Numbered from the stretch's first letter, positions 2,780-32,419 are shown. The stretch is 64,000 nucleotides of DNA from an uncultured Pirellulales bacterium (GCA_964495465.1 CAZBWE010000001.1:2572-66571); one strand, 5' to 3'. Notes: generated by a model not told the origin, from the letters alone. Numbers and translations are program-made.

Positions 2780-3808
2780 CTATTCGTAGTTCACCAACAC
2801 ACTTTTTGCGACACCCTCGCTTATAACCTTATCCCCAACAAGAGCATTCACAGACTCAACCATAGTTACCATTCCGTGTTTTTTACCCGTTTCGATTATG
2901 CTTCGCAGGAAAAATCCGCCCTTTCTCCTTATAACATTTCTTGCAGCAGCGGTCGTAACCAGCACTTCGCACGCCACTCTCTGCCTTCCATCAATGGTGG
3001 GAAGCAATTCCTGATGAATTACGCCCTGCAGAGATTCGGCTAGGAGAAACCTTAACTGGTTTTCATCGGTAGCAGGAGCGTAGCTTATAAGTCTTTCGAT
3101 AATCTTGTCGATTGATATAACATGCAGGGTGGAAAGAACCAGGACGCCTGTTTCTGCGGCGGTTAAGGCAATCTTAATTGTTTCATAATCTCTCATCTCG
3201 CCTATAGCAATTATATCAGGGTCTTGTCTTAAAGCCGCCCTTAATCCGCTATAAAACGATTGAGTATCCCTTCCAACCTCCCTTTGCCTCACCATTCCGG
3301 TTTTGTTGGTATGCACATATTCGATTGGGTCTTCAATCGTAATAATATGTTTTTCACAGGTTGTATTTACCTCATCCACCATTGCCGTCATCGTGGTAGT
3401 TTTGCCCTGACTGGTGCTTCCTGTAATCAATACCAATCCTTTTGTCCTGTGGGCTAAATCCCTGACAATATCAGGAAGAAACAGCTCCTGGATTGTTTTG
3501 GGTTTTGTCGGAAGGATTCTGAGAGTAGCGCCTACACTACCGTTAAAGTAACCGACGTTTATTCGATACCTGCCGCTTTCATCCGCCAGCATCAAATCAT
3601 AATCAAGGTTTTGCTCAAACCGACTTTTCTGGTCCTCCGTCAGCAGCTCCAGCGATATTTCCCTGCTTTGCTCAGCAGTCAAATTTTCTTTTGTAATTGG
3701 AACTAATTTACCCCCCACCCTGAACAAAATTGGAGCACCCGCGCAAATATGTATATCAGTGGCTTGTTGCGTTTTGGCGTGTTCTAATAATTGTTTTCTG
3801 CTTATCAC
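2780..3808 (-). CDS. pilT: PilT-type (retraction) secretion ATPase
   Basis: 342 aa. Motifs: Walker A variant GSTSQGKTT, Asp box ITIEDPIEYVH, Walker B DPDIIAIGEMRD, His box LSTLHV. N-terminus DIHICAGAPILFRVGGKLVPI. The GTG start overlaps the upstream stop (GTGA). Confidence 0.85.
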   Translation of the reverse strand: MISRKQLLEHAKTQQATDIHICAGAPILFRVGGKLVPITKENLTAEQSREISLELLTEDQKSRFEQNLDYDLMLADESGRYRINVGYFNGSVGATLRILPTKPKTIQELFLPDIVRDLAHRTKGLVLITGSTSQGKTTTMTAMVDEVNTTCEKHIITIEDPIEYVHTNKTGMVRQREVGRDTQSFYSGLRAALRQDPDIIAIGEMRDYETIKIALTAAETGVLVLSTLHVISIDKIIERLISYAPATDENQLRFLLAESLQGVIHQELLPTIDGRQRVACEVLVTTAAARNVIRRKGGFFLRSIIETGKKHGMVTMVESVNALVGDKVISEGVAKSVLVNYE

Positions 3809-4185
3809 AACCCGATTCTTAATTTATTTTTCGAGCTTTTGGTTTGCCTCGCCCTGCTGCACAACGTATTTATCCGAACCTCTTTCTCTTCATTTAAAGG
3901 CGCACTTACAATCACACTCAAAGCTGCCGACCGGACGTCCATATCAGTAATATCCAATTCTACGGCCTTGTCAAGGATTTTACCGCCTTCGTCCCTGATA
4001 TTTCTTTTTGTCCAGGCCAAGCCGCTCACGACCAAGTTGCGCTCAACGGCCTGGAGATAGGCGGTATCCGCCTGGAAGAGCATAGTATTCGAGCCGCCGG
4101 CCAAAACGAACATCTCGAGTCCGACTATAGCAATCGCCAGTATTACAATTACCAGAACAAAACCATTTTGTTTTATTTTTTTCAT
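3805..4185 (-). CDS. Minor pseudopilin-like protein (GspK-like N-terminus without Glu+5)
   Basis: 126 aa. The N-terminal segment KQNG/FVLVIVILAIAIVGL resembles a class III signal but lacks Glu at +5. It is the last of three small genes in the pseudopilin position of the operon. Confidence 0.5.
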   Translation of the reverse strand: MKKIKQNGFVLVIVILAIAIVGLEMFVLAGGSNTMLFQADTAYLQAVERNLVVSGLAWTKRNIRDEGGKILDKAVELDITDMDVRSAALSVIVSAPLNEEKEVRINTLCSRARQTKSSKNKLRIGL

Positions 4186-4187
4186 CT

Positions 4188-4709
4188 TTACTTAAAAGCT
4201 TCTCCCAAAGCACCCACAAAATACAAATGAGAATTTGCCATTTTCTTCTCCCAATGACCCCAAACCTCATGCTCTATATGGGTCCTAACCTGCACAGCAT
4301 AACCTTTGCCGTTTTCTCTCCAGACCTGCCATTGCACCTTAGCGTGCGGCACCGACCAGACTCTGGTATCTTCGCCTTCGCTATCATCCGTAGATATTAT
4401 GTTGCGCCTAAGCACTTTGTCATCCCTTATCTGATAACTAATCACGCCATCTTTCATCTCAATTAAAAGAAGCTCTTCATTTGCAGTACTCTCACCAAAT
4501 GACGCCGGCAGCCCTTTGGCAGCGTCAACATCCTCACGCATCCGCTCCAACATATTAAGCAGGGTCGTATTTGTCTGCATAACACGATATGACCGTGGAA
4601 CATCGGTTATAACTGTGCTAAATAGACCGGCCAAAGCAAACGAAGCAGCCGTAAGAACAACCATCACAGCCAATAACTCTGCCAGCGAAAAACCCCTGCG
4701 CATATTCAT
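4188..4709 (-). CDS. Prepilin-type N-terminal cleavage/methylation domain protein (pseudopilin)
   Basis: 173 aa. MNMRRG/FSLAELLAVMVVLTAA has Gly-1, Phe+1 and Glu+5 followed by a hydrophobic helix. Confidence 0.8.
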   Translation of the reverse strand: MNMRRGFSLAELLAVMVVLTAASFALAGLFSTVITDVPRSYRVMQTNTTLLNMLERMREDVDAAKGLPASFGESTANEELLLIEMKDGVISYQIRDDKVLRRNIISTDDSEGEDTRVWSVPHAKVQWQVWRENGKGYAVQVRTHIEHEVWGHWEKKMANSHLYFVGALGEAFK

Positions 4710-5101
4710 TGCTCCTCACCAGATAAGGATTTATCTTCTAAAATATATCTGCTTAACTTTACCTGCACCTGTCTATTAAAGCTCCTGTCGCGAACTGCGA
4801 CTTCCACTAATTTGAGCCCCTGCCATTGACCGGTTCCGGGTGATTCCTGAATTGAAACAGTCAGTTTAGGCCAAAGCTGTTCAAAGTCTTCGTCATTAAG
4901 TGGCTTTCCTCTCTCAGTTATGCTCTCAAGCTGCGCCTGGGCTGCTGCTATACAACGCTGCCTTACGAGCTGGTAGTCGTTAAACCTCCTGAAACCATCC
5001 AGTGATACTGCAAAGCCGACCAAAAGAACCCCCATAACAGCCAATGCCGCCATCATCTCGGCAAATAAGTAGCCACGATATCTATTGTTCTTATCAAACA
5101 C
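4706..5101 (-). CDS. Prepilin-type pseudopilin
   Basis: 131 aa. NRYRG/YLFAEMMAALAVMGVLLVG has Glu+5. GTG start with GGAG about 8 nt upstream, and a 4-nt overlap with the next gene. Confidence 0.7.
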   Translation of the reverse strand: MFDKNNRYRGYLFAEMMAALAVMGVLLVGFAVSLDGFRRFNDYQLVRQRCIAAAQAQLESITERGKPLNDEDFEQLWPKLTVSIQESPGTGQWQGLKLVEVAVRDRSFNRQVQVKLSRYILEDKSLSGEEQ

Positions 5102-5117
5102 AATTTTGCTCCATTTA

Positions 5118-6587
5118 TTACGGTGTTACAAGCCCTGTCAGAATATAAATAACTTTAATACTCGGGGAAAATATTGCGAAAATTACAAATCCCACCATTG
5201 TCCCCATAATAAGCGTTACACAAGGCCACATTATATATCTGGCAAGATTGATACGGTAACTGTAGTTCGAGCGATAAAATGATTCGAGCATCTCTAATAT
5301 CGTTAAAGTATTGCCCTGGTTTACCTGCTCATCAAACGCCCACGCCAAAGTAGTGCCTATTCCTTCTCCTTTAGCTGAAACCGAAATATTTTCACCGCTT
5401 TGGACCTTATCCAGCCAATTTTTCAGTCTTTTTCTAAAACGATTATTCACATCCAGACCAAGTGTATTAGCGATGGCATCGTTTACTGTGCAGCCGGCGT
5501 TAAGCGACAGCCGCAAAAGCTCAATCACCTGTACCATAGAGTAATTTCTCTCAAACCAGTGCAGAATCGGCAAGTGCCATTTAACAAAATCGCCAAATCG
5601 CGAAAGTAAATATGGCTTATCCGGCCGACGAGGCCTAAACCTGACATAAATCGAAACAGGGATAACTATAGTAACTATAGCTGCGGCTACCAATCCGAAC
5701 AGCCAGCCATATCTAAATGCAATAAAATTCGAAATTTCACATAAAAATTGAGTAGCAGCAGGAAGTCTTGCACCTTCAGTCATTTCTACCATAACATCGC
5801 TGAAAACAGGAACAACCTTCCAAACCAATACGAATACTATAAAGAACATAAAAGTTATTAATAACACCGGATAAAACGGATGAACCGGCCTGATTTTCAT
5901 TCTCTCATCAGCACGAACTGTCATATCTGCTTCAATCGCACCGATTGCCTGCGGAAGCTGGTCAATCCGCTCAGCGGCAGCTATCATTGCCATTGCATAA
6001 CCCGGGCATTTTGGATAGCCCCGCTTGATAGATTCACTTAATGAATATCCCTGAATGAGCCATTTTTTTATTCTCTGCAATATTTTCGAGCGCTTGTCCT
6101 TTCGTCCCCCTGCTGCTGTTTCGAGAGCCATCGGCAAAGGCAGATTCTGCCGCATACTCGAACCTATTGTCGAAATAACGTATGCGGCAACTGCATGGCG
6201 CGATGTCAGACCATAGATTATAATTGCACCTATAAACAAAATAAAAAATCCAAGGCCGATAGCACCTAACGGACCAAACACAATACCCGCGCATACAATT
6301 AGAAGCAGAATAGCGATACCTCTAAGTATCCATTTTGCCCAGAGCCGCGGCCATTCTTCAACATCCGGCTCACGCTTTTGCACTAAAATCATTAACAGAG
6401 TCGTAATGAAGATAACAGGAGCAAATATTCCCCCCCAGAATGTCTCGTCCAAAGCCGCAGCAAAACCCAATAACAAACAAACGATTGGTGACGTAACCAA
6501 AGCAATACCCGGCTTCTTATAACCTAAAACCGCATAAAAAATTAAAATTAAAATCGCTATAATTGTAAACATACTTACACCAATCAT
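5118..6587 (-). CDS. GspF/PilC-family platform protein paralogue with an extra N-terminal multi-TM region
   Basis: Two T2SSF-like repeats are present (ILQRIKKWLIQGYSLSESIK...AMIAAAERIDQLPQAIGAI, and VIELLRLSLNAGCTVNDAIANT...GNTLTILEMLESFY). About 180 aa of extra TM helices precede them. I prefer the ATG at 6587, which overlaps the upstream stop as TGATG, over the ORF-track start at 6719. Confidence 0.7.
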   Translation of the reverse strand: MIGVSMFTIIAILILIFYAVLGYKKPGIALVTSPIVCLLLGFAAALDETFWGGIFAPVIFITTLLMILVQKREPDVEEWPRLWAKWILRGIAILLLIVCAGIVFGPLGAIGLGFFILFIGAIIIYGLTSRHAVAAYVISTIGSSMRQNLPLPMALETAAGGRKDKRSKILQRIKKWLIQGYSLSESIKRGYPKCPGYAMAMIAAAERIDQLPQAIGAIEADMTVRADERMKIRPVHPFYPVLLITFMFFIVFVLVWKVVPVFSDVMVEMTEGARLPAATQFLCEISNFIAFRYGWLFGLVAAAIVTIVIPVSIYVRFRPRRPDKPYLLSRFGDFVKWHLPILHWFERNYSMVQVIELLRLSLNAGCTVNDAIANTLGLDVNNRFRKRLKNWLDKVQSGENISVSAKGEGIGTTLAWAFDEQVNQGNTLTILEMLESFYRSNYSYRINLARYIMWPCVTLIMGTMVGFVIFAIFSPSIKVIYILTGLVTP

Positions 6588-7789
6588 CAGACTCCGCCTA
6601 AAGCCGTAACTACCTGTATCATCGGCAAAAAAATCGAAAGAACCGCCAGGGCTACAAATCCCCCTACCGCGATTATCATAACGGGCAGCAAAACCGCCTG
6701 TAATCTCGCCTGGCCGCATTTTGCCTGCTCAGCATACATCTGTCCGAGACTATAGAGATTGTCCTGTAATTCGTTGCGCTGCGTTCCCAACTGGATGGAA
6801 TACAAAAACAACCGTGGTATCATTCTGCAAAACTGCCCCGCCTCCAAGATATTTGCCCCCTGCTCAATTTGGCCCGCAAGAGCTTCACTTTCCAGGATTA
6901 TTTTGGCACTTCCTGATGCATCTGAAGCTAATCTCAGACAAGCCGGCATATCACAACCAGCCGCGACCATCATCGCCATTGCCTCAGCCATCCTGCCCAG
7001 CACGCTGCTATGATATACCCTCCCTATAATCGGTATTTTCAACAACAATGACTCTTTGAACCTGCGTCCCGCCGGATATCCTGAGAGCATCGATAAGATA
7101 ATAATCAACAATATAACGATAATTACTACTACTATCCAGAAAGGAACTACGTTTCTCGCGATACCGAAGAAGAACAAAGTAAGAGCGGGCATACGTGCAC
7201 CCTCTACCATCTCTGTAAGTATCGGGACAAACTGCGGGATTATAATCAGAAATACCGCTGTTATTACCACAGCAGCCAGAGCCAGAATAACCGCAGGATA
7301 ACACAATGCTTCAAAAATTATCCTCCTGGTTTGATTGGACAGCTCCAGATGCCTGTTCAGACTGGTAAGCATCTCGCTCAATCTCCCTGTTTCCACCCCC
7401 GCCTTTAATATCCGACCATATAAAGGCGGAAAATGCTTTTGTCTCTTTTCAAACGCATCCTCAATACTAACACCGGCCTCAAGCTCTTCAGCGATAGCGT
7501 TGACAAGTTTACGCATAGACTTTGAAGTGACATCGTCTGCAAGCTCTCGCAGGCCTTTCTCCAGAGGAATACCAGCTTTTGTTATTGAAGCCAACTGCTG
7601 ATTAAAAAGCATAAATTCGTTCCTGCCGATGGATGTCTTGGGTCTTGGAGCTTTGGCCTCTTCAATAGAATTTACGGTAAGCTGCATCTGTTTGAGCTGT
7701 TCGCCCACCTCGTCCCGCGAAGCCGCTTCAATAGTGCCTCTCATCAGCCGGCCGGCCGATGTCAGTGCATTATATTCAAACGTCGCCAT
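6587..7789 (-). CDS. gspF: Type II secretion/type IV pilus platform protein (GspF/PilC family)
   Basis: 400 aa with canonical architecture. It starts MATFEYNALTSAGRLMRGTIEA, has two T2SSF repeats (LASITKAGIPLEKGLRELA..., MAMMVAAGCDMPACLRLAS...) and three TM segments. Confidence 0.85.
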   Translation of the reverse strand: MATFEYNALTSAGRLMRGTIEAASRDEVGEQLKQMQLTVNSIEEAKAPRPKTSIGRNEFMLFNQQLASITKAGIPLEKGLRELADDVTSKSMRKLVNAIAEELEAGVSIEDAFEKRQKHFPPLYGRILKAGVETGRLSEMLTSLNRHLELSNQTRRIIFEALCYPAVILALAAVVITAVFLIIIPQFVPILTEMVEGARMPALTLFFFGIARNVVPFWIVVVIIVILLIIILSMLSGYPAGRRFKESLLLKIPIIGRVYHSSVLGRMAEAMAMMVAAGCDMPACLRLASDASGSAKIILESEALAGQIEQGANILEAGQFCRMIPRLFLYSIQLGTQRNELQDNLYSLGQMYAEQAKCGQARLQAVLLPVMIIAVGGFVALAVLSIFLPMIQVVTALGGV

Positions 7790-7823
7790 TTTAAATTTCC
7801 TCGAGCTAAACTTTTAAGTTTTA

Positions 7824-8774
7824 TTATTCCAATTTTAATTCGTATTGTACCGAATCCTCATCAGTTCCTCCTTCCGGAATGGGCCCTTCCAATACTGCCT
7901 GAGTGCCGGCAGTGCTGCGATAAATAAACAGCTTATTTTTTACAGGGTCATCCGGAATGGTTACTTCATTGATTTCTCCGAGATTGTCGGGAAATTTGCC
8001 ATCATGAATAGCTGCGTAGAGACGCAATGCCTCGATGCATTGGAGGACAGCAACGTGACGGTCTAATCTGTTCATTAACAAGCGTATCTTGTTTCTCACT
8101 TCCGGCATTTCCAGTTCTGTCTGTTGGGTCAGGTCGATAAACGGCTTCGGCAAATCCTGCAAGGCCCAATAAAGATTAGGTGCATCTTGCCCTTGAATTA
8201 ACTCCTCCATCTGTTTCAATGTGATTGCAGCCGTTGCTACACCTATCAAGCCCTGGACGAGAGTGGGAGCTTTGTCTAAGTGCTTTGCCATAGCAAAGCC
8301 GGTCTTAATAGTACAAATCGCCTCGTTGTATTTACCCCTAACGATTTGAACCCGGCTCTGCAAAGCAAGGAGGAAAGCCAGCTTTCTATATCCACGAAGC
8401 TCCTCAGTAGTCGTGCCGACTTCCACAGCCGGCCAGTTGCACTGCTTGCATTTGGAAGCCTGTTGGATTAATTGCAGCGTGGGTTTGAGCTGCTGCAGCA
8501 TCGCTTGTGCCTGTTCCTGGGGCAATTTATTCAATGGTTCATGAATCCACTGGTTAATCTGGTCTTCCTGTAAATCTTTGGGCATTGATTGAACCGCTTT
8601 ATTATAAAATGGCACTGCATCCGAATCACTGCATTCACTATCCCTCGGAAGAAACTGATACTTGTCTTTCGGCTCCGGTGCTTTTGCCGGGTGCAGTGTT
8701 AATTCTATCGTGCGAGCGTGCACAGAAACAGCAGCGAGACACAAAACAATAAAGCACCTCAGTTTGCTTCTCAT
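7824..8774 (-). CDS. Secreted protein of unknown function (helical, possibly TPR-like)
   Basis: Signal peptide MRSKLRCFIVLCLAAVSVHA follows the ATG at 8774, with GAGAAAGG upstream. The ORF-track start at 8816 is a GTG that overlaps the ATPase gene. I recognise no motif in the mature part. Confidence 0.5.
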   Translation of the reverse strand: MRSKLRCFIVLCLAAVSVHARTIELTLHPAKAPEPKDKYQFLPRDSECSDSDAVPFYNKAVQSMPKDLQEDQINQWIHEPLNKLPQEQAQAMLQQLKPTLQLIQQASKCKQCNWPAVEVGTTTEELRGYRKLAFLLALQSRVQIVRGKYNEAICTIKTGFAMAKHLDKAPTLVQGLIGVATAAITLKQMEELIQGQDAPNLYWALQDLPKPFIDLTQQTELEMPEVRNKIRLLMNRLDRHVAVLQCIEALRLYAAIHDGKFPDNLGEINEVTIPDDPVKNKLFIYRSTAGTQAVLEGPIPEGGTDEDSVQYELKLE

Positions 8775-8802
8775 AACAAAAGTACCTTTCTCATAAATAC
8801 GA

Positions 8803-9972
8803 TTAAACGATGCCACATACCTTATTCAGTTCTTCCTGTGTCGTAACGCCATCATCAACCAGGCGCTGGCCGTCGGCCAGTATATTCGTATGGCCCCTGC
8901 TCATTAACAGCGCTTCAAGCTCTTCGAGGTCGGCCTTGGCCAAAATGGCTTTTCGCAAATGGCCGTCCAGTTGAACCATTTCCGCTATTAACACCCGGCC
9001 TTTATAGCCGGTATTAAAACAGTCGTCACATCCTGCTGCTTCAAACACACCTGCTTCAACCTGCCTCTTACATTTTGTGCAAAGTTTTCTGATAAGCCGC
9101 TGGTTCAAAACTGCTGAAATACTTGATGTTACCTGATACGGCTCAATTCCCATCTCCAGCAATCGTAAAAGCGCCCCTGCAGGTGCGCCGCTGTGCATCG
9201 TGCTCATTAGCAGATGTCCTGTTAGTCCTGCTTCGATAGCTATCCTCGCAGTCTCAGCGTCCCTAATCTCTCCGAGCATCAAGACCTGCGGGTCCTGCCG
9301 TAACAGCGACCGTAGTGCCATCGGAAATGTCATCTCGCCTCGAGGTGTAATCTGAACCTGTGTAGCTCCTTCAATCCTGATTTCCACAGGGTCTTCAAGG
9401 GTTACAATACTCTTACCTGAAAAATTCTTTAGAATGTGCCTCAAAACAGCAGCGAGCGTTGTGCTCTTGCCGCTGCCTGCCGGGCCGGTCAGGAGCAGGA
9501 CTCCCTGGTTTTGGGCAGCAATTGTCCTCAAAACTGCATAGATTCGCTCTGAAAAACCCAGCTGCCCCAATTCAATAAGCTCAATATTGCTGTAAAACAA
9601 TCGCACAACTGCTCGCTGGCCGTAGATTGTTGGAAAAATCGCCAGACGCTGGTCAATAATCGCACCGGTCTGATCTTTGGTAATCTCAATCCGGCCTTCC
9701 TGCGGAATATCGTTACGATACGTCAGAAGCCCTCCCAATACTTTCAGCCGTGCAATAATATTGTCGGATATGGATTTAGGCAGTTTTTCTACTATGTTTA
9801 AGACGCCATCGAGACGAAATTTTACCACTAATTCAGCCCCCGTTGGCTCAAAATGGACATCACTGGCACCAAATTCCACTGCTTTTTCGAGCAAATCATC
9901 CACCAAAGATACCACATCCTGCGCATCTTTCTTGTGCTCATAAGCTCTGTTATTATAATCACTTACGCTCAT
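8803..9972 (-). CDS. GspE/PilB-family secretion ATPase lacking the usual N-terminal domains
   Basis: 389 aa. Motifs: Walker A GPAGSGKSTT, Asp box LEDPVEI, Walker B QDPQVLMLGEIRD, His box MSTMHS, and the tetracysteine CTKC...CDDC. Confidence 0.85.
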   Translation of the reverse strand: MSVSDYNNRAYEHKKDAQDVVSLVDDLLEKAVEFGASDVHFEPTGAELVVKFRLDGVLNIVEKLPKSISDNIIARLKVLGGLLTYRNDIPQEGRIEITKDQTGAIIDQRLAIFPTIYGQRAVVRLFYSNIELIELGQLGFSERIYAVLRTIAAQNQGVLLLTGPAGSGKSTTLAAVLRHILKNFSGKSIVTLEDPVEIRIEGATQVQITPRGEMTFPMALRSLLRQDPQVLMLGEIRDAETARIAIEAGLTGHLLMSTMHSGAPAGALLRLLEMGIEPYQVTSSISAVLNQRLIRKLCTKCKRQVEAGVFEAAGCDDCFNTGYKGRVLIAEMVQLDGHLRKAILAKADLEELEALLMSRGHTNILADGQRLVDDGVTTQEELNKVCGIV

Positions 9973-10098
9973 AAAATGATTTTATCCCACAAAAATCATT
10001 AATTTTTAGCTATCTCTATCCGCACAATAAGACGCAAATGCCCATCCAAGCGTTACCTAAAAAACAAAGTTTTTTTTACCACAATTGCTATGTTTTTT

Positions 10099-10124
10099 GT
10101 TAACATATTGTTATGGGCTGCGTC
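10099..10124 (+). promoter_or_regulatory. Candidate ECF-type autoregulated promoter (GTTAAC-N16-CGTC)
   Basis: AAC at 10102..10104 and CGTC at 10121..10124 are separated by 16 nt, about 40 nt upstream of the ECF sigma start. This is a resemblance to the generic ECF -35/-10 pattern only. Confidence 0.2.
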
Positions 10125-10165
10125 TTAAAATGTAGAGAAGTATAAATAGGAAAAACTGGGTTTTT

Positions 10166-10735
10166 ATGTTCGATAAGACAGCCAGCTATGGACTTGTTTG
10201 GGATTTGACCGTCTCCGAAGCCATAGACGAAAGTCAGCGTTGGGTATTGTCCACAATGCAAAGGCACGGCCAAGAGTTAGTTACTATGCTCTGGCGAATT
10301 CTGGGCAATGAACAGGATGTTTGCGACGCTTATCAGAATACGTTTCTTCAGCTGGCCCACTACGAAGGAGGGGAAAAACCCGAACATATAAAAGCGTATA
10401 TCTTCCGCACGGCAAACAACGTGGCAATATCGATGTTAAGACGCAGCGTTGCCGAAAGAAACAGGTTGTCAGCAGCAGTCATTAGCACAAAAAACACAAG
10501 CTCTCCTGCAAATGAGCTTGACTCCAAATACCTGCAGGAAAATTTAAGACGATATATAGCACAATTGCCTGAACATTTAAGAAACGTAATAACGCTGCGC
10601 GACCTGGCAGAATTATCTTACACACAGATTGGCAGGATATTGGGAATATCAGCGGCAACCGCGAGAGTCTATAGGTGTAAAGCGATTCAATTATTAGCTG
10701 TATGGATGAGGAAGGAAGAGCAAAAGATACTATGA
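10166..10735 (+). CDS. ECF-family RNA polymerase sigma factor
   Basis: 189 aa. Region 2 (DVCDAYQNTFLQLAHY, IFRTANNVAISMLRR) and region 4 HTH (LRDLAELSYTQIGRILGISAATARVYRCKA) are both present. Confidence 0.85.
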   Translation: MFDKTASYGLVWDLTVSEAIDESQRWVLSTMQRHGQELVTMLWRILGNEQDVCDAYQNTFLQLAHYEGGEKPEHIKAYIFRTANNVAISMLRRSVAERNRLSAAVISTKNTSSPANELDSKYLQENLRRYIAQLPEHLRNVITLRDLAELSYTQIGRILGISAATARVYRCKAIQLLAVWMRKEEQKIL

Positions 10736-11577: not shown

Positions 11578-13446
11578 ATGACACGGCTTTTCGGATTCGG
11601 ACTTAAAGAGAATTGGTCTGACGATAACGGTGCTGGTGACTATTACAGCAACAATTCTGCAGAGGAAATCAAAGGGCTGTCAAACCTGTACAGCCCACAA
11701 GAGGAAAGTTCCGTTCATATCCGGGACATCGCCGATGTTCTCTGCGAAACCGGAAAGATTACTTCCGACCAGCTCTCCTATATAAGACAAACCCAGGAAA
11801 AACAACCCGGCTGCGATGTCACCCAAGTAATCCTTGAATCAAAATTAGCTGATGAGCCGGAGATTTCAATGGCTCGAGCGAGCTTGTTTGGATTCGAGTT
11901 TCGCCGGATTGAGCCGGAGCAAGTTGACAACCAGGTATTCGACAAACTTGAACTTAACTACATAAAAAGCAACCACATCATGCCTATAGCTGTAAACGAC
12001 CAAACACTGGTAGTAGCAACAAGCCGACCTGCAGATTTATTTATCATAGAAGACGTGAAAAGACAAACACGGATGGACATCGAGGTGGTCGTATGCTCTG
12101 ATGAAGACATAAACAAAGTCTGCAATGCGTTTGAGAAAGACAATGCCGACTACCGCCTCGATGACATTATAAGCGATATGACGGATGTTGAGGTGATTCA
12201 GGACCAGCAGGAAGAGTCCGAGGACCTCGAAAAAATGGCAGGCCAATCACCTGTTATTAAATTCGTCAATTATCTAATTAGCAACGCTATACATGAAGGT
12301 GCCAGTGACATCCATATCGAACCGAAGGAAAAGTTCACAAGGATAAGATATCGCATAGATGGGGTGCTTTTTGAAACAATGCAATCACCGTCAAAAATGC
12401 ACCCGGCAATCGTATCCCGAATTAAAATTATGGCCAATCTCGATATATCAGAAAGACGGCTCCCACAAGATGGACAAATTTCAGTTATCGTAAGCAGCAG
12501 AGAAATTGACCTGCGAGTCTCAACCTTACCAACGAATCACGGAGAAAAAGTCGTCATACGTATTCTGGACAGTAAATCGATTATAAGAGAGCTTGAGCAG
12601 TTAGGTATGGAGCCGTCGGTATGCACCGATTTTCGCCGGCAGATAGCACTACCTCACGGGATTTTGCTTGTTACAGGTCCTACCGGCTCCGGCAAAAGCA
12701 CAACGTTGTATTCGGCTTTGTGCCAGATGGACAGCGAGAAATTAAATATTTCCACAGTCGAAGATCCTGTCGAACTACAGCTTGATTTTTGCAATCAAGT
12801 GCAAATTAACGAAAAAATCGGCCTAAATTTTGCCTCAGCACTGCGGAGTTTGCTGCGCCAGGACCCGGATGTAATGATGATTGGTGAGATACGTGATAAT
12901 GAGACCGCCCGTATCGCGGTCCAGGCCGCTCTGACGGGGCACTTAGTTCTTTCCACATTACACACAAACGATGCGGCCAGTAGTATTACCCGGCTGGTCA
13001 ATATCGGCATTGACCCCTATCTGATAGCTGCATCACTAAACACAGTGCTTGCCCAGCGATTAGTCAGAAAGATTTGTCCGAAGTGCAAGCAAACTTACCA
13101 GATGCCGGAGAATATGTGGAAACACATAGAAAACTCAGGGGTTCAGCCGGAACAGCTCTTTCATGGTGTCGGCTGTGATTATTGCAGGGGCTCAGGTTAT
13201 TTAGGCAGAGTGGGTATTTATGAGCTGCTGGTCATTAACGATACATTCAGAGATATAATCAATAAAGACTCTTCCGTCAGCAATATACGTCGTGAGTTCC
13301 GTGAAAGCGGCCGGCTGAGTTTGTTCAATGACGGGATTATAAAAGTAAAACAAGGCCTGACAACAATAGAAGAAGTATTAAGGGTCACAGAAGTTTGCAA
13401 CGAACCATCTGAAGCAGGCCGCAATGAAAACGCAAATCCCGGCTAA
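11578..13446 (+). CDS. pilB: PilB/GspE-type assembly ATPase with full N-terminal domains
   Basis: 622 aa. The N-terminal T2SSE_N-like region contains LSYIRQTQEKQ...ARASLFGFEFRRIEPEQVD...IMPIAVNDQTLVVATSRP. Motifs: Walker A GPTGSGKSTT, VEDPVE, QDPDVMMIGEIRD, STLHTND, and CPKC...CDYC. Confidence 0.85.
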   Translation: MTRLFGFGLKENWSDDNGAGDYYSNNSAEEIKGLSNLYSPQEESSVHIRDIADVLCETGKITSDQLSYIRQTQEKQPGCDVTQVILESKLADEPEISMARASLFGFEFRRIEPEQVDNQVFDKLELNYIKSNHIMPIAVNDQTLVVATSRPADLFIIEDVKRQTRMDIEVVVCSDEDINKVCNAFEKDNADYRLDDIISDMTDVEVIQDQQEESEDLEKMAGQSPVIKFVNYLISNAIHEGASDIHIEPKEKFTRIRYRIDGVLFETMQSPSKMHPAIVSRIKIMANLDISERRLPQDGQISVIVSSREIDLRVSTLPTNHGEKVVIRILDSKSIIRELEQLGMEPSVCTDFRRQIALPHGILLVTGPTGSGKSTTLYSALCQMDSEKLNISTVEDPVELQLDFCNQVQINEKIGLNFASALRSLLRQDPDVMMIGEIRDNETARIAVQAALTGHLVLSTLHTNDAASSITRLVNIGIDPYLIAASLNTVLAQRLVRKICPKCKQTYQMPENMWKHIENSGVQPEQLFHGVGCDYCRGSGYLGRVGIYELLVINDTFRDIINKDSSVSNIRREFRESGRLSLFNDGIIKVKQGLTTIEEVLRVTEVCNEPSEAGRNENANPG

Positions 13447-13509
13447 CGCAGATAAGTATTAAGGATAAACACGAAAAAGTTTATCTGAATAAACAACAGT
13501 TTTTGGATT

Positions 13510-14895
13510 ATGCTGAAAAAATTCGCTATCCTCGGTTCAGTACTATTACTTGCCGGCACTGTCGCGCTTGGATGGGTAATTGTCGAGAAAAAAAAAGAAC
13601 AGCGGCAGCTTGCACCTTATAAGCTAAAGTATGGTTCGGAACCGGATGAGTATATCAAGCAATACAATGAGTGGCTGCAACTGGCTCCCGAAGAGCGTGC
13701 TATGACACCCTGGGGGCAGGACGAATCCGGCAATGCAAAAACAGAAGCTCAGCTACAAAATGAACAACAGGAAAGACTCAAAGCTGACCTGGACAAACTG
13801 GCCGCTGGTGAAATCCACCCTTTCGCTGACATTCTTTATGGCGAGAACTGGCAAAACGAATTAAGCAAATACAAAGAGAAAAAGGAGCTAAGGGAGTTTA
13901 TTCTTACCTGTTCTATTGCCTGTACGTTTGCAGGGGGAGCGATTTTTACGTGCTGTTTATTACTATGGTCGTCCCGGCTGTTCCTTTCCACACTTGATGG
14001 TTCGCCGAGAGAATTATTCATCAATATCATCAGAGGCCGAAAAAACAAAAATATAGAAGCATACACAGCCGATTCAATAAAAGTCCGTAAAAATTCAGAA
14101 GCTTTTATAAATCCTGGCCGGCAAAACTACAATACAGATTTTGAAAACCATAAAAAGTCCGCCTGCGAACAGGTTGCTTTTTCGCCGGCAGGTAATACCG
14201 AATCCGGTTTCTGGAACTCAAAACGCGGAAAAGAACACTCGACAATGCCAAAAATTTCCGTGTTGCTTTCCGATGAAAAATCCAGCGACACTGAAAAGAC
14301 TGTTTTGCCGGACTCTCACAAAAATTCCTTAAACTTTGAAGATGCGCTGAATACTCAAACAGAAACCCTGGAAAAACAGATGGATGAATTCAGGCAGCTG
14401 GCCCAAAACATCCAGCAAGCTGCTCTTGAGCATTCAAATCCCCTTAAAAACGCCCTTGGAGAGCTAATGCAGCAAGTGTCCGCAATTCGTGAATACGCTG
14501 CCTACCAGCAGGACAGGGTGGAAAAGCTTCAGGATGGATATGACTGGAACATAATCAGAACTTTTTGCCTGCGTGTTATACGCTGTATTGACAATCTCGA
14601 AAGTCGCATTAGTCGTCTGTCTGAAAAAAATATTGAGACTTTGGACCTTAAGGAAGTAAGAGACGAGCTTCTTTTCGCCCTGGAATCCAGCGGAGTTGAA
14701 CAATTCGAACTCGGAGTAAACAGTGACTATCGGGGGCAGGAAAAGTTTGCAGAGGCAGTTAAAGAAAAGCAGCAATGCGACGACCCGAAACAGGCCGGCA
14801 AAATTGCACAGGTAATCAGGCCCGGCTACCAATATTTTATTAACGACGAAAATATCAAAGTAGTCCGAACAGCCCAGGTAAAGCTGTTCGGTTGA
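13510..14895 (+). CDS. Membrane-anchored GrpE-like nucleotide-exchange-factor protein
   Basis: 461 aa with TM1 FAILGSVLLLAGTVALGWVIV and TM2 CSIACTFAGGAIFTCCLLLW. The C-terminal ~160 aa align by eye to GrpE: VIRCIDNLESRI matches LLPVIDSLDRAL, and SSGVEQFEL...IAQVIRPGYQYF...VVRTAQVKL matches KFGVEVI...VLGIMQKGYTLNGR.IRAAMVTV. Confidence 0.65.
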   Translation: MLKKFAILGSVLLLAGTVALGWVIVEKKKEQRQLAPYKLKYGSEPDEYIKQYNEWLQLAPEERAMTPWGQDESGNAKTEAQLQNEQQERLKADLDKLAAGEIHPFADILYGENWQNELSKYKEKKELREFILTCSIACTFAGGAIFTCCLLLWSSRLFLSTLDGSPRELFINIIRGRKNKNIEAYTADSIKVRKNSEAFINPGRQNYNTDFENHKKSACEQVAFSPAGNTESGFWNSKRGKEHSTMPKISVLLSDEKSSDTEKTVLPDSHKNSLNFEDALNTQTETLEKQMDEFRQLAQNIQQAALEHSNPLKNALGELMQQVSAIREYAAYQQDRVEKLQDGYDWNIIRTFCLRVIRCIDNLESRISRLSEKNIETLDLKEVRDELLFALESSGVEQFELGVNSDYRGQEKFAEAVKEKQQCDDPKQAGKIAQVIRPGYQYFINDENIKVVRTAQVKLFG

Positions 14896-14948
14896 TACGG
14901 AAAATAAACCGTTTTACAGGCGACCTGCGAGAAGATAAGAGGTGTAAA

Positions 14949-16499
14949 ATGGCAAATATAGTAGGCATAGACCTTGGAACGACCTTCTCGGCATTGGCTA
15001 TTCTCAATGCAATCGGCAAACCGGAGATAATCCCGAACGCCGACGGTGAAAGACTCACTCCGTCTGCAATTTTCTTCGATGAAGAGAATCCCGAAATCAT
15101 CAGGGTAGGCATTGAAGCGATTAATTCACGGCACCTGAATGCTCAAAGGTCGGTTCGCTGGATAAAGCGGTATATGGGAGACTCAAACTATAGAAAAAAA
15201 ATTGACGGCAGGGATTGGTCAGCCGTGGAGTTATCCGCTCTGATTCTAAAAAAGCTCAAACAGGAATGTTCAGCCGAGCATGGTGAAATCCGCGATGCTG
15301 TTATTTCTGTTCCCGCCCACTTCGACGAGGTCCGCCGAAAAGCAACAATGGACGCAGGGGCTTTGGCCGGGCTAAACGTAATCGCGATTGTCAATGAACC
15401 TGTAGCCGCTGCGTTATATTATGCCACAACACGCAAGGTCTCAGGAAAAGTCCTCGTATATGACCTCGGCGGCGGAACATTTGACGTAACCATAATGAAT
15501 GTTAAGGGGCATCAAATAGACATTATCTGTTCACAGGGTGACCACGCACTCGGCGGCATCGACTTCGACCGGAAAATACTCGATATACTTCAGCAGAACT
15601 ATAAGGATAAATTCGGCACCGACCTTATTGGTTCCGAAGAAGACAAGGCAAAGTATGAAGATGAGGCAGAGGATATAAAGAAGACACTATCCCGGCGTGA
15701 AACAGCAAAGAAGATGCTTTACGGCCCAGCCGGCAATATGAGAGTGGAAATCACCCGTGAGACGTTTAAAGAAGCTATCTCTTCACTGGTAGCCCGCACC
15801 GAAATCCTGCTGGAAGTGGCTCTCGATGAGGCAGGCATCAAACCATCTGACATCGATAATGTCCTTCTGGTTGGCGGCAGCACTCGAATACCATTGGTCC
15901 AGCAGCGACTTGAAAAAATGTTCGGATTCGCACCCGAAATAACCGTCAACGTAGATGAATGCGTTGCTCTCGGCTCTGCTTTACATGCCGGCCTAACAAT
16001 GCTAAGAGAAAAACCCAACGATGTGCCGGCGGGAATCTCCAGTGGCCTGCAGGATATTAACCTCACAGACGTCTGCAATCACAGTTACGGCACTATATGC
16101 GCCCCTATCGATAAGGAAACCGGACGACGGGTAATTGCCAATCGTATCATCCTAAAGAAAAACACACCTTTGCCCTGCGAAGCATCGCAAATGTTCTACA
16201 CAATGACTGAGGGGCAAACAGAGGTCGAGGCAACCATAACCCAGGGCGAAGATACTGCTGTTGAGTATGTAAACAAGATTGCGACATATAAATTCGAGCT
16301 TCCTCCAAAAAGACCGGCAGGACGACCAATAAAGGTCACTTACAGTTACGACGTAAACCAAAGAATGCACTGTAAGCTCGAGGACCTCGAATCAGGTAAA
16401 GCACTTGAAGTTGATTTCTACTTAGACAAAAATAGTAAAATTACAGAAAATAACGTCACAGAAAAAAACAATCAACCGGAGCAATCCAAAGTTGAATAG
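14949..16499 (+). CDS. Hsp70-family ATPase, short form without the C-terminal helical lid
   Basis: Start MANIVGIDLGTTFSA, with AAGAGGTG upstream. ATPase motifs: DLGGGTFDV and LVGGSTRIPLVQ. The interdomain linker is LTDVCNHSYG. The beta-sandwich SBD ends at about residue 516, whereas canonical DnaK is over 600 aa. Confidence 0.85.
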   Translation: MANIVGIDLGTTFSALAILNAIGKPEIIPNADGERLTPSAIFFDEENPEIIRVGIEAINSRHLNAQRSVRWIKRYMGDSNYRKKIDGRDWSAVELSALILKKLKQECSAEHGEIRDAVISVPAHFDEVRRKATMDAGALAGLNVIAIVNEPVAAALYYATTRKVSGKVLVYDLGGGTFDVTIMNVKGHQIDIICSQGDHALGGIDFDRKILDILQQNYKDKFGTDLIGSEEDKAKYEDEAEDIKKTLSRRETAKKMLYGPAGNMRVEITRETFKEAISSLVARTEILLEVALDEAGIKPSDIDNVLLVGGSTRIPLVQQRLEKMFGFAPEITVNVDECVALGSALHAGLTMLREKPNDVPAGISSGLQDINLTDVCNHSYGTICAPIDKETGRRVIANRIILKKNTPLPCEASQMFYTMTEGQTEVEATITQGEDTAVEYVNKIATYKFELPPKRPAGRPIKVTYSYDVNQRMHCKLEDLESGKALEVDFYLDKNSKITENNVTEKNNQPEQSKVE

Positions 16500-16522
16500 C
16501 AACAACTGAAGGGGGCCAAAAA

Positions 16523-17794
16523 GTGGCAGGTCATTTCAACTATATAAGTCTAATCAGCCCCATCAGGAATTTTCTCTTTCGTATCTCCGACCGGCTCAGC
16601 AATGCCAGGTTAGCGATGCCGCAAAAAGCGAACCTCGAACAAATTGCAGAGCAACCTGTAGCACCGGATATGCAAATCCTTAACTGCCGAGTTCAACTAA
16701 CAAAGCAAAAAAAGGGCGCCTCCGCTTGTGATGCTTTTGCGGTGGAAATCTGCGGCTCAATCCATAATCCCCGTCTTCAAAGCCAAACAGATACAATCCT
16801 GAAAATTTCGATTACAGACATAACAGATGTTGTTCACCAGTTACATAATAAAAACCGACTCTCGCCCAGACATATTTTTGAGTCAGAAGTGTTACAGGAT
16901 AAAGCAATGCCGGTCCACAGTAATATCAAAGAGTGGCAACTGCAAAACTCACCTGTATTTTGCTATAAAACCGACCTTGGCAAACTTCCCAACGAAGTCA
17001 CGACCCTATCAGACTGGACAGTCGCTGCCCGGATACGCCTGGATTGGCTAACATTCCCCCCCAGGGGAAACAGAAACCTGCAATTCAATGTTTCAGTCCT
17101 TTCCCGCAACAGCGGCGACGAGCTCGCTTGTGCCCTATGCACCTTCATCCACGAGAATACCGAGTACGGATATATAGACTTGCAGGAAAATATCCAACGA
17201 GCTAAAATCCTGACGGTCGCATTGGCGTTCGCTGTCAGTGCAGCAGACAAAAAATTATACGATTGCGAAATTGAACTTATAAAAAACTGGGTAAGAGAAA
17301 ATCTCGATACTGTCGGCTCATCTGATAAAGTCAGACACAACTTCGACAAAGCGCTAAAAAAAACCATCACCTTCTTCCAAAATGGCAATCAGCTCAACAC
17401 CTATAAAATTTGCAGAGAAATCGTTGAAATAGCACCAGTCGCAAATCGCTATGATATTTTGGAACTGTGCCTGTATGTCGCTCAGGCCAAGGGTTTTGCC
17501 GCTGCCGAGGAACTTGCCCTGTTGAAGGACCTGGCAAAATGGCTCGAAGCAGATACGGAACGCTTCAATGAAATGACCGAAAGAATCCTTCCCGTCAATA
17601 TACACCAGGTCAAAGATATGGAAGTGATCCTTGGCGTAAATCCGCGTATGGGCAAAGAAAATACCCGCCGGCATCTGAATAAACTATTCTGCAAATGGAA
17701 TTCGAGGGTAACAAATCCCGACCCTGCGATTCAGAACCAAGCCGACCAGATGTTAAAACTCATCGCAGAAGCAAGAAGTCAATATATAGGATAA
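16523..17794 (+). CDS. Three-part protein: unknown N-terminal domain, TerB-like domain, and a C-terminal J-like helical hairpin lacking HPD
   Basis: 423 aa. GTG start with GAAGGGGG upstream; the alternative is ATG at 16616. The TerB-like region is AKILTVALAFAVSAADKKLYDCEIELIKNWV...LELCLYVAQAKGFAAAEELALLKDLAKWL. The C-terminus ILGVNPRMGKENTRRHLNKLFCKWNSRVTNPDPAIQNQADQMLKLIAEARSQY resembles J-domain helices II-III, with NSR in the position of HPD. Confidence 0.55.
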   Translation: MAGHFNYISLISPIRNFLFRISDRLSNARLAMPQKANLEQIAEQPVAPDMQILNCRVQLTKQKKGASACDAFAVEICGSIHNPRLQSQTDTILKISITDITDVVHQLHNKNRLSPRHIFESEVLQDKAMPVHSNIKEWQLQNSPVFCYKTDLGKLPNEVTTLSDWTVAARIRLDWLTFPPRGNRNLQFNVSVLSRNSGDELACALCTFIHENTEYGYIDLQENIQRAKILTVALAFAVSAADKKLYDCEIELIKNWVRENLDTVGSSDKVRHNFDKALKKTITFFQNGNQLNTYKICREIVEIAPVANRYDILELCLYVAQAKGFAAAEELALLKDLAKWLEADTERFNEMTERILPVNIHQVKDMEVILGVNPRMGKENTRRHLNKLFCKWNSRVTNPDPAIQNQADQMLKLIAEARSQYIG

Positions 17795-21800: not shown

Positions 21801-23227
21801 GTTAACTTTCGCACTTCTAATAAGCATTTAAGCTGCTGAGGCTAATGCTTCTATTAAAAACTTGAAATTTTTGTTATGTACGAACCTTTTACCGAACATA
21901 ATTTTAATTCTATCCCGCCAAAGCACTCGGCGAAGGCAGTTCAACGCATCTGCAAAGCTGGGAGCCAACTTGCCCGGGTACCACGGCTGAACAAAAAGGT
22001 ATCTCCGCTTCGATTTCTGACCAAGATACCACAGCCAGACCGCGGAATAAACCCACAGACTCATCGCTGCTGCTCGCTCGGGACCTTTGCGTTTCCAGAT
22101 CTGAGGTTCTTGGCCACCCATAAACTGCTTGGTGTTTTTGAAAGTATCCTCGATGCTCCATCTGCCCGCAAAGTCGCTTATTACCTCGGCGGCGGTAAGA
22201 CTCAAATCCGTGGTAAAGAAAAAATCGTCTTTCTCTTTGCCCGCAGGGACCTGACTGATTACCAGAAGCACCGGTTTCCGCGATACCCTGTACCATACAA
22301 CTTTTCTGATATATACAAGATGTTCTCTGCTCTTGCCTCGTTCGCAGGTTTGAATCCGTTGCCAGTTGGTTATTCTTTTCGCCAGTTTTTCCAGAGATGG
22401 AAGTTGTTTGCCTTTCTTGCGAGGCCTGCCCCTTGTCTTTTTTCTTTTCTTGCCCAGCAAATCGTAAGTATTTGCATCCCGACGCATACGCGAGATTATA
22501 TGAGTGTTGGGTATGTCCTCTCCTGCCAGAGAGGCGTAAAAACCGTCCGCACTGCACAGAAAACGCCTTTGAGGCAACCAGAGGGCAACTTCCGTGAGCA
22601 TCTGGCTGGCCAGTTTTATAAGAGTTGGCCCATCCTTCCGGTGAAGTCTCATATTGATAGGCAGGCCAAGGGGTTCGCCGCCCCATGGCGGATTTATTCT
22701 CAGTGTCCGTACTACCAGGTTCAGACCCCAAGCGTGGACTATGTTTGTACCGGTCGAGCGAACCGCGTCCCGCCACCAGCATGCACCATTGACTTTTCTG
22801 CCACTGCGATGAAACAGGGTGTCGGCCAGGTCGGTAGATATTACACCGGTTGGGTAAAATATTCCGACCAACAGAATCGTCAAAAGTCTCCACAATTCGC
22901 TCATTACCCAGAAAGCATCCGGGAAAAACCGGTGATAAGCATCGTGAGCCTTATGTCCGGCTGGGTCGGCGAATGGCAAAATACCGGTGATGGCGCGTTT
23001 TGCGGTGCAGAGGACCCAACCGGTTACGAGGTTGAGAAAACTTCCTGTCGTGGGAACGGTGAATATTGGAAAAAAGTGTTGAATTATCGTATCCCATGTC
23101 GAAGTAATAATTGTATTCATGCCAACCTCCATGTCTTATTTTTATTTCCAATAAAGACATCGGAAGGTTGGTATGTTTATGTTGACAAATCATTAAAATC
23201 AGCCGCCTAAAAAGTGCGAAAGTTAAC
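21801..23227 (-). mobile_element. Insertion sequence (IS701/IS4-like), 1427 bp, with perfect 16-bp terminal inverted repeats
   Basis: GTTAACTTTCGCACTT at 21801..21816 is the exact reverse complement of AAGTGCGAAAGTTAAC at 23212..23227. The element encloses a single DDE transposase gene. Confidence 0.8.
21828..23132 (-). CDS. DDE transposase (IS701/IS4 family-like)
   Basis: 434 aa. Candidate catalytic residues lie in ISTDLADTLFHRSGRKVNGA, LCSADGFYAS and WSIEDTFKNTKQFMG. A basic patch KKRKKTRGRPRKKGK is also present. Confidence 0.75.
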   Translation of the reverse strand: MEVGMNTIITSTWDTIIQHFFPIFTVPTTGSFLNLVTGWVLCTAKRAITGILPFADPAGHKAHDAYHRFFPDAFWVMSELWRLLTILLVGIFYPTGVISTDLADTLFHRSGRKVNGACWWRDAVRSTGTNIVHAWGLNLVVRTLRINPPWGGEPLGLPINMRLHRKDGPTLIKLASQMLTEVALWLPQRRFLCSADGFYASLAGEDIPNTHIISRMRRDANTYDLLGKKRKKTRGRPRKKGKQLPSLEKLAKRITNWQRIQTCERGKSREHLVYIRKVVWYRVSRKPVLLVISQVPAGKEKDDFFFTTDLSLTAAEVISDFAGRWSIEDTFKNTKQFMGGQEPQIWKRKGPERAAAMSLWVYSAVWLWYLGQKSKRRYLFVQPWYPGKLAPSFADALNCLRRVLWRDRIKIMFGKRFVHNKNFKFLIEALASAA

Positions 23228-31870: not shown

Positions 31871-32419
31871 ATGAAGCTGAACACAGAAGAACAGTTAGTA
31901 GAAGCAGCTCAAAACGGTCACTTGGAAAGCTTTGGTATCCTGTACGAGCGATATCACAGTTCGATGACGGCACTGGCGTATTCAGTGCTCGCGAATAGAG
32001 AGCTTGCGAATGATGCAGCCCAGGAGGTATTTGCGATTGCCTGTCGCAAACTACCGAGTTTGAAACATAACGATAAGTTCGGTGCGTGGCTGGCGGCTAT
32101 ATGCAGAAACGTGGCAAGAGGAATGCTGCGAGCAAAAACCAGAACCATAGCACCAGATATACGACTATCTTCTATCGAAGAAACGGACACTAAAGAGCAA
32201 CGACGAGATGCAGTTCGGCAGGCAGTATGGCAGTTGCGCTCTGCAGAGCGAGAATTAATAGTTATGCGATATTATGATGGATTTTCTCAGGCACAGATAA
32301 GCAAGGTGCTGGATATTTCAGCATCGGCTGTAAATGGCCGGCTCGTACGGGCCAAACGAAAGATTGCAAAGTATCTGAAACGCAACGGTTTCACAGGAGA
32401 AGATTATGGAACGGTTTGA
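31871..32419 (+). CDS. ECF-family sigma factor
   Basis: 182 aa. Region 2 (ANDAAQEVFAIACRK, WLAAICRNVARGMLR) and region 4 (VMRYYDGFSQAQISKVLDISASAVNGRLVRAK). Confidence 0.85.
   Translation: MKLNTEEQLVEAAQNGHLESFGILYERYHSSMTALAYSVLANRELANDAAQEVFAIACRKLPSLKHNDKFGAWLAAICRNVARGMLRAKTRTIAPDIRLSSIEETDTKEQRRDAVRQAVWQLRSAERELIVMRYYDGFSQAQISKVLDISASAVNGRLVRAKRKIAKYLKRNGFTGEDYGTV

Follow-up and report, generated by a model that had tools for sequence, protein, structure and literature searches.

A conserved type IV filament locus of the Sedimentisphaerales with two platform proteins and a divergent, putatively controlling ECF sigma/anti-sigma pair

The subject of this analysis is a 64,000-nucleotide stretch of DNA from an uncultured Pirellulales bacterium (GCA_964495465.1, CAZBWE010000001.1:2572-66571; hereafter the window), and within it an operon of eight consecutive open reading frames (ORFs), all on the minus strand between positions 2780 and 9972, that encodes proteins of the type IV filament superfamily. 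With moderate confidence as to both its kind and its regulation, we read this operon as an extracytoplasmic function (ECF) sigma factor-induced, minimal and self-contained type IV filament assembly module, of a lineage of its own within the Sedimentisphaerales. The names of its homologs place the genome in the Planctomycetota, class Phycisphaerae, order Sedimentisphaerales. Loci of relatives were found with the operon's assembly ATPase as the query, and the best 80 of 291 species genomes were tabulated; the denominators used below are these 80 loci, 66 loci with enough flanking sequence for the sigma factor pair to be scored, 48 complete loci and 73 intergenic regions.

Across these 48-80 Sedimentisphaerales genomes, the conserved unit consists of a divergent ECF sigma/ZAS anti-sigma pair together with the genes for a short assembly ATPase (E389), two platform proteins (F1 and F2) and three pilin-like proteins (p131, p173 and p126). 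F1, F2, p131 and p173 are found in all 48 complete loci, always in the same order and with p126 last. A PilT gene is present in 15 of the 48, and the position between the ATPase and F1, which in the window holds a secreted protein (the slot protein), is empty in 21. The initial annotation had taken all eight genes as the system; they are not the conserved unit, and the mixture of type II secretion system (T2SS) features with PilT that it described is a feature of one sub-lineage, because of these same two counts. Its account of the operon itself holds good, with eight co-directional genes joined in part by stop/start overlaps (TGATG at F1/F2, ATGA at p131/p173 and GTGA at p126/PilT, by coordinates). 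Pfam and NCBIfam name five of the eight products (the ATPase, F1, F2, p173 and PilT), and the clustering of a T2SSE ATPase, a GspF/PilC platform protein and a class III signal places the locus in the type IV filament superfamily by the generic definition (Denise et al., 2019).

The invariant partner that had been overlooked is the divergent sigma/anti-sigma pair with its matching promoters. An ECF sigma ortholog upstream of the ATPase gene, with an adjacent anti-sigma ortholog, is present in 66 of the 66 loci with enough flank. The pair has the features of an ECF sigma/class I (ZAS) anti-sigma module, namely sigma regions 2 and 4 only, an Hx3Cx2C motif (HIANCPRC), one transmembrane helix and a self-similar promoter, and the anti-sigma gene begins within the 3' end of the sigma gene. 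The sigma-ATPase intergenic region of about 170 bp contains one ECF-type motif in one copy per strand, (G/T)TAAC-N16-GCGTCTTA, and the ATPase-facing copy ends 56-59 nt upstream of the ATPase start. In relatives, the motif toward the sigma gene (GTTAAC-N16-CGTC) is found in 68 of the 73 intergenic regions, the motif toward the ATPase in 63 and both together in 61, compared with about 2 of 73 per strand in shuffled sequences. The strict form occurs three times in the 2.5-Mb genome, twice in this intergenic region and once within a gene; this third match, on contig C5 inside and opposite to a gene for a 651-aa protein, was set aside as a chance occurrence rather than a real promoter. A scan for sigma-70 promoters and terminators performed no better than shuffles. 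The predicted promoter pair is what one usually sees where an ECF sigma factor regulates itself and one dedicated target operon, and the first description of the locus as a single operon of type IV filament kind is supported, in the form of one ECF-driven operon.

Table 1. Positions and features of the filament operon, the divergent regulatory pair and the predicted promoters in the window.
Feature	Position	Strand	Description
E389, short assembly ATPase, 389 aa	8803-9972	-	T2SSE; N2, C-terminal ATPase domain and tetracysteine, without N1
Accessory secreted protein (slot protein, "orph"), 316 aa	7824-8774	-	signal peptide, helical repeats, small beta sheet
Platform protein F1, 400 aa	6587-7789	-	T2SSF x2; canonical GspF/PilC architecture, 3 transmembrane helices
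Platform protein F2, 489 aa	5118-6587	-	4-5 extra N-terminal transmembrane helices, then two T2SSF domains
Pilin-like p131, Glu5 present	4706-5101	-	cleavage context G|YLFAE; GspI-like by position and size
Pilin-like p173, Glu5 present	4188-4709	-	cleavage context G|FSLAE; canonical class III signal; GspJ-like fold (model)
Pilin-like p126, no Glu5	3805-4185	-	cleavage context G|FVLVI; GspK/ComGG-like position
Accessory PilT-family retraction ATPase	2780-3808	-	TIGR01420 above cut-off
ECF sigma factor, 189 aa, divergent from filament operon	10166-10735	+	Pfam Sigma70_r2 and Sigma70_r4_2
Anti-sigma factor, 174 aa	10702-11226	+	zinc-binding motif HIANCPRC; one transmembrane helix, residues 123-141; short periplasmic tail
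Predicted ECF-type promoter facing sigma gene	10098-10127	+	TGTTAACA-N-GCGTCTTA
Predicted ECF-type promoter facing ATPase operon	10028-10057	-	GGTAACG-N16-GCGTCTTA

Beyond the sigma/anti-sigma pair, the plus strand encodes (11578-17794) a PilB-type ATPase and, after it, a GrpE-like membrane protein, a short Hsp70 and a protein with a TerB domain; the ATPase (11578-13446, 622 aa) is full-length, carries an MshEN domain and lies 1.6 kb from the filament operon. In relatives, the anti-sigma gene has a PilB-type ATPase beside it in 19 of 45 loci and an Hsp70-like protein in 26 of 45, and transcription from the ECF promoter could extend into the PilB-Hsp70 unit. The plus strand of the window has two additional ECF sigma genes (31871-33668 and 33854-36347, each range including the genes that follow), the first with a 420-aa and the second with a 150-aa and a 500-aa protein after it, all without a family match; the 500-aa protein has no detectable kinship with the slot protein.

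The E389 protein is a member of the T2SSE family (PF00437, E = 7e-104), with a Walker A motif GPAGSGKST and a tetracysteine CTKC...CDDC. It had been described as devoid of both the N1 and N2 domains but with the tetracysteine retained; the lack of N1 and the tetracysteine stand, whereas N2 is present, since the protein can be aligned to the crystallized EpsE construct without N1 over construct residues 26-406. Its scores lie below every NCBIfam equivalog cut-off (386 against 630 bits for GspE, TIGR02533; 358 against 676 for PilB, TIGR02538; 216 against 300 for ComGA; 38.5 against 373 for the TadA family, TIGR03819). The best 80 relatives are 71-85% identical and all come from Sedimentisphaerales/Phycisphaerae-type metagenome-assembled genomes among the 291 GTDB species genomes; the catalytic motifs are kept in 80 of these 80 orthologs and the tetracysteine in 77. 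In a maximum-likelihood tree, E389-type ATPases form one clade with a long stem and 100/100 support, which includes versions from distant planctomycetes and stands apart from the genome's secretin-linked GspE-like paralogs, the type IVa pilus PilB, the ATPase of the PilB-Hsp70 unit and E. coli GspE and HofB, although the tree does not settle where among these the clade joins. The distant planctomycetes encode short E389-like ATPases (47-53% identity) followed by a GspF-like gene, and one such locus has an upstream ECF pair while another has two platform genes.

Both platform proteins match T2SSF (PF00482, 1e-35 for F1 and 1e-18 for F2) over two stretches each, again with scores below the specific cut-offs (226 against 424 bits for F1 with GspF, TIGR02120; 148-161 against 700 bits with the PilC models; 102 against 240 with ComGB). 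The earlier view of F1 and F2 as a pair of full-size GspF-type proteins is correct for F1 and needs revision for F2, in which a transmembrane scan finds 4-5 extra helices at the N-terminus. The longest ORF for F2 spans 5118-6719, and the protein is read as 489 aa because the start that gives the TGATG overlap is at 6587; full-length F2 orthologs are abundant. Each of F1 and F2 forms its own clade, and the two platform proteins of a distant planctomycete split between these clades with support of 86/80 and 91/96 (the latter for F2). On this phylogeny F1 and F2 are not recent duplicates but old, separate lineages, and their joint retention over such depth points to distinct, probably cooperating roles. 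The closest paralog of both within the genome is the PilC of contig C18. Phylogenies of the ATPase and the platform proteins, which the initial annotation had suggested, thus give E389, F1 and F2 a clade each, relative to named references that comprise E. coli GspE/F and HofB/C only.

The three small proteins are pilin-like; in p131 and p126 the class III signal was recognized by inspection of the sequence. In p131, the motif G|(F/Y)L(L/F)(T/A)E is conserved across orthologs, and a weak match to ComGE is found (18 bits, cut-off 49; E = 0.002). The p173 sequence matches N_methyl and TIGR02532, the latter above its cut-off, and its AlphaFold2 model (predicted local distance difference test score, pLDDT, 80) has members of the GspJ family as its top Foldseek matches, XcpW (5bw0) and EpsJ (3cfi, 2ret), with probabilities of 0.9-1.0 and template-modelling scores (TM-scores) of 0.43-0.47. 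The 13 aligned orthologs of p126 share an invariant G|FVL(V/I)L, and none of the 13 has an acidic residue at position +5. Sequence comparison does not classify the three further: profiles of all three families against PDB sequences match known pilins in the N-terminal helix only, and hhalign against E. coli GspG/H/I/J/K and PpdD likewise aligns this helix alone and assigns no class to p131, p173 or p126. The gene order (a small pilin with Glu5, the J-like pilin, also with Glu5, and a small one that lacks it) and the GspJ-like fold predicted for p173 are the grounds on which the triplet is read as a putative GspI/J/K-type initiation complex; the modeled fold also backs the original division of these pseudopilins into two with Glu5 and one without. 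No GspG-like major pilin or GspH-like gene is found in the locus, nor was a GspG-type gene seen in those relatives' loci that were examined in detail, and the genome's GspG-like pilins sit in its other filament loci. In a closed relative of the same order (G460, locus L170), an extra gene for a 299-aa pilin-like protein (7051-7950, …KEGFTL…) is inserted between the J-like and K-like genes. The same locus has a gene for a 1,838-aa protein directly downstream of the operon.

The operon's PilT scores above the family cut-off (TIGR01420, 364 bits, cut-off 319) and has the characters of PilT/PilU, with the motifs GSTSQGKTT (Walker A), GEMRD and AARNVIR; the unusual Walker A sequence is identical in 23 of 23 orthologs. 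Its closest paralog is a PilT on contig C5 (93/89 in the tree). As a defining part of the system, PilT was rejected on its occurrence in 15 of the 48 complete loci only.

The slot protein is encoded by an ORF at 7824-8816, of which the ATG at 8774 is probably the true start, giving 316 aa in agreement with its homologs. It has no Pfam or NCBIfam match, and the initial annotation had called it an orphan, a term that does not suit a family of 3,015 clusters at 50% identity. In its confident AlphaFold2 model (pLDDT 91.6), a signal peptide and helical repeats are accompanied by a small beta sheet, which runs to the last residues, and the PDB search gives no match for this fold (best E 0.67, TM-score 0.24); the C-terminus is a conserved beta strand, RYELxLK, that in the monomer model is part of the protein's own sheet. 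In addition to the empty positions, the ATPase-F1 slot contains one copy in 19 and two copies in 8 of the 48 loci, and three copies in one further locus; a core structural role as a replacement for GspL/M was rejected on account of the 21 empty slots. Among 34 paralogs examined outside filament loci, 16 come directly after an ECF sigma gene, in many cases with the gene for a small membrane protein in between, so the family travels with ECF modules; one further paralog follows a PadR regulator. The slot protein is thus better viewed as an optional add-on linked to ECF modules than as a core part, and three roles can be envisaged for it: partner of the signalling pair in the periplasm, ordinary target of the ECF sigma factor, or protein that docks at the tip. 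Certain relatives also have in this slot a secreted protein or lipoprotein of about 550 aa, or a 1,073-aa version, with a C-terminal YHELAH metallopeptidase-type motif (Peptidase_MA_2; e.g. L084:10203-11852 and L128:10154-13375), which is absent from this window. In a second Sedimentisphaerales family, the core is the same and the slot protein longer.

No secretin or prepilin peptidase gene is found within 9 kb of the locus in any of the 80 relatives, no secretin match (PF00263) occurs on contig C1, which carries the window, and no PilMNOP or GspC/L/M match to Pfam or NCBIfam was obtained among the operon's proteins and most of the larger window ORFs, a scan that very divergent versions could escape. 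The statement that the window is without a secretin, prepilin peptidase or PilMNOP/GspLM agrees with these searches, and a search of the rest of the genome for the missing parts, also suggested at the outset, located six secretin matches off C1 and, on contig C4, the genome's single Peptidase_A24 (prepilin peptidase) match. The genome is rich in filament machinery, with 18 T2SSE matches in addition to the six secretins. For four ATPase-platform pairs, a secretin lies on the same contig at a distance of about 15 kb or less (C17, C24, C34 and C50), and contig C18 carries a PilC-PilB-PilT locus. Beside the latter (C18:6118-8009), a PilB-like ATPase appears to be divided between overlapping ORFs of 344 aa (the N-terminal part) and 328 aa (the ATPase core), which could reflect a frameshift or an assembly error. 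A cluster on contig C5 (46876-53546) comprises PilM/N/O-like genes and, behind them, those for a PilT-type ATPase, a platform protein and two pilins, and contains no PilB-type ATPase. The closed 4.9-Mb genome of the relative G460 carries the full locus, with the nearest secretin 126 kb away, and the locus was also found in salt-marsh metagenomes.

These observations can be assembled into a mechanism for the proposed ECF-induced filament module. An envelope signal would free the ECF sigma factor from its zinc-binding membrane anti-sigma factor, as is expected for this family, and the freed sigma factor would fire two matching divergent promoters, those of its own operon and of the filament operon, a step suggested by the conservation of the promoters and the near-uniqueness of their motif in the genome. 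The short ATPase, without a GspL/PilM-type partner, would dock directly on a mixed F1/F2 platform, in which the extra transmembrane bundle of F2 may stand in for the missing alignment proteins. The single prepilin peptidase would process p131, p173 and p126, which would together form a GspI/J/K-type initiation complex. The product would most likely be a short, periplasm-based pseudopilus, because neither a major pilin nor a secretin is encoded in the locus or beside those of the relatives' loci that were examined, and a pilin from another locus may lengthen it. In this genome, its retraction would fall to the dedicated PilT.

Several points weigh against this interpretation. The docking of the ATPase on the platform and the heteromeric nature of that platform are both steps that we infer, and the I-like and K-like labels of p131 and p126 derive from gene order, size and Glu5 status only. 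The ATPase gene was not found in any of the RNA-seq runs searched. The genome is 89% complete; it contains two secretins with no ATPase nearby (C25, isolated, and C14, at a contig end) and about 26 pilin-like genes elsewhere, and in the closed relative three of the seven secretins adjoin no ATPase. The unlinked secretins and dispersed pilin genes therefore leave room for a surface fibre, or for a true secretion system, with parts supplied in trans.

A bolder form of the proposal, possible though tentative, is that the locus represents a new class, in which an ECF-switched motor acting through a heteromeric F1/F2 platform would build a GspI/J/K tip complex only, with neither major pilin nor secretin, a periplasmic "stub" or piston tied to envelope signalling, on which the slot protein would dock by its C-terminal beta strand. 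This idea can be set beside the PilI-PilJ-PilK 'licensing complex' model, in which fibre assembly is proposed to begin with three minor pilins, of which the last lacks Glu5, and a non-pilin protein can donate the final beta strand via its C-terminus (Ellison et al., 2026, PMC13533445). The conserved terminal strand RYELxLK of the slot protein would suit such a role; in contrast to the model, however, this strand belongs to the protein's own sheet in the monomer prediction, and many loci have no slot protein.

An unlikely alternative is a stripped-down T2SS under ECF control, with its secretin and major pseudopilin in trans, that exports the slot proteins (the 316-aa protein here and the HELAH protein of about 550 aa in relatives). 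The best NCBIfam scores of the ATPase and platform proteins do go to GspE and GspF, the pilin set is GspI/J/K-like with one GspJ fold, the slot holds between zero and three secreted proteins, Peptidase_MA-like in some relatives, and secretins unlinked to an ATPase are available both in the genome itself and in the closed relative. However, the 21 loci with an empty slot imply that the machine exists without locus-encoded cargo, and the slot-protein paralogs near ECF sigma genes without filament genes argue for a regulatory link rather than for cargo. Furthermore, GspC/L/M were not detected in the ORFs scanned, the ATPase lacks the N1 domain through which it would bind GspL, no secretin is nearby in 80 of 80 loci, and PilT, which to our knowledge is never part of a classical T2SS, is here joined to the operon.

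Rather more doubtful is a retractile surface pilus of the type IV pilus or competence type, serving adhesion or DNA/polymer uptake, with major pilin and secretin in trans and PilT retracting the fibre. The translational coupling of PilT to the last pilin gene and the conservation of its own Walker A variant are what such a pilus would predict, the short ATPase and the ATPase-platform-pilins order resemble comG operons, and the weak ComGE match of p131 and the C18 PilC as closest paralog of F1 and F2 point the same way, but PilT is missing from 33 of the 48 loci, the ComGA, ComGB and ComGE scores fall far under their cut-offs, no PilMNOPQ, ComEA or ComEC is seen in the locus, and the only fold-tested pilin is GspJ-like rather than a major pilin. 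That the locus is what is left of a larger one, for secretion or for a pilus, and is decaying or has lost its function might explain the absence from it of secretin, major pilin, peptidase and alignment proteins, but this reading is highly improbable and was rejected as contradicted by conservation, given intact frames throughout, the identity of the ATPase in the best 80 species genomes, invariant gene order (48/48), and preserved catalytic motifs (80/80), tetracysteine (77/80) and promoters.

Three further features of the window were noted: a 438-aa protein with TPR repeats and two RNA polymerase alpha C-terminal domains, an unusual architecture (36529-37845, plus strand); a minus-strand DDE transposase gene (434 aa) whose stretch is also covered by a 444-aa ORF in the opposite orientation (21828-23210); and a 1,033-aa protein with a right-handed beta-helix and Chlamydia PMP-type repeats (53201-56302, plus strand), which is likely a surface adhesin or autotransporter-like protein.

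The handful of classes of type IV filament usually share one plan: a single platform protein and a major pilin, to which diderms add a secretin. The significance of the ECF-linked locus lies in its being a widespread and strongly conserved system that keeps two old platform paralogs, pilins apparently of the initiation type only, and a dedicated sigma factor of the envelope-stress type. If F1 and F2 mix, the locus would be a natural test case for the way in which the platform couples the ATPase to pilin insertion, a question that the reported formation of a trimeric ion channel by PulF (PMC10790770) has not closed. In addition, the locus predicts in concrete terms a circuit of sigma factor, promoters and operon for an uncultured but abundant group of bacteria that degrade polysaccharides in sediments, and suggests a role for the slot protein, the representative of an unannotated family of 3,000 clusters.

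Compared with the T2SS (Gsp/Pul/Eps/Xcp), the locus shares a GspE-type zinc-binding ATPase core, a GspF-type platform and the order ATPase, platform, pseudopilins, as well as a pilin triplet that resembles GspI/J/K, in which the predicted J-like fold matches XcpW/EpsJ and the last member is without Glu5. It differs in the absence of the N1 domain from its ATPase and of GspC/L/M, the GspD secretin, GspG and GspH from the locus, and in the possession of two old full-length platform paralogs, a dedicated ECF sigma factor and, in a third of loci, PilT; all its equivalog scores are below the cut-offs, and none of the T2SS hallmarks sought (an N1-bearing GspE, a GspD encoded with the system, GspC/L/M) was found. 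The Com pseudopilus of monoderms (ComGA-GG) is similar in its short ATPase without N-terminal accessory domains, in the lack of secretin and alignment proteins and in its compact operon, which comprises ATPase, platform and small pilins and closes with a pilin that lacks Glu5, and in some species it is under the control of an alternative sigma factor. The present locus, in contrast, belongs to a diderm planctomycete, has two platform proteins and a GspJ-like tested pilin, encodes no ComGC-type major pilin, and gives ComGA, ComGB and ComGE scores below the equivalog cut-offs. As in the Tad pilus (TadA/TadB/TadC), two platform genes lie side by side next to one ATPase gene; TadB and TadC, however, are half-size with one T2SSF domain each, whereas F1 and F2 have two domains each, and the ATPase is not of the TadA/CpaF type by its TIGR03819 score. 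A type IVa pilus is not indicated either, with PilB and PilC scores below the cut-offs and no PilMNOPQ or major pilin in the locus. In its mode of action the locus would resemble a T2SS or a Com-type pseudopilus; the initial judgement that it lies outside the standard layouts is nonetheless borne out for the features tested of the T2SS, type IVa pilus, Com and Tad systems, and no description of this layout, its ECF control, the F1/F2 pair or the I/J/K-only pilin set was found in the literature searched, the coverage of which was incomplete. The locus also corresponds to the 'generic' systems of Denise et al. (2019), a category for an ATPase, a platform and pilin-like proteins that fit no specific model, to which 884 unassigned systems belong (PMC6668835). 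With its ATPase, inner-membrane platform and pilin-like proteins, the locus would be 'generic' under that classification, although this category is a residual bin rather than a described system.

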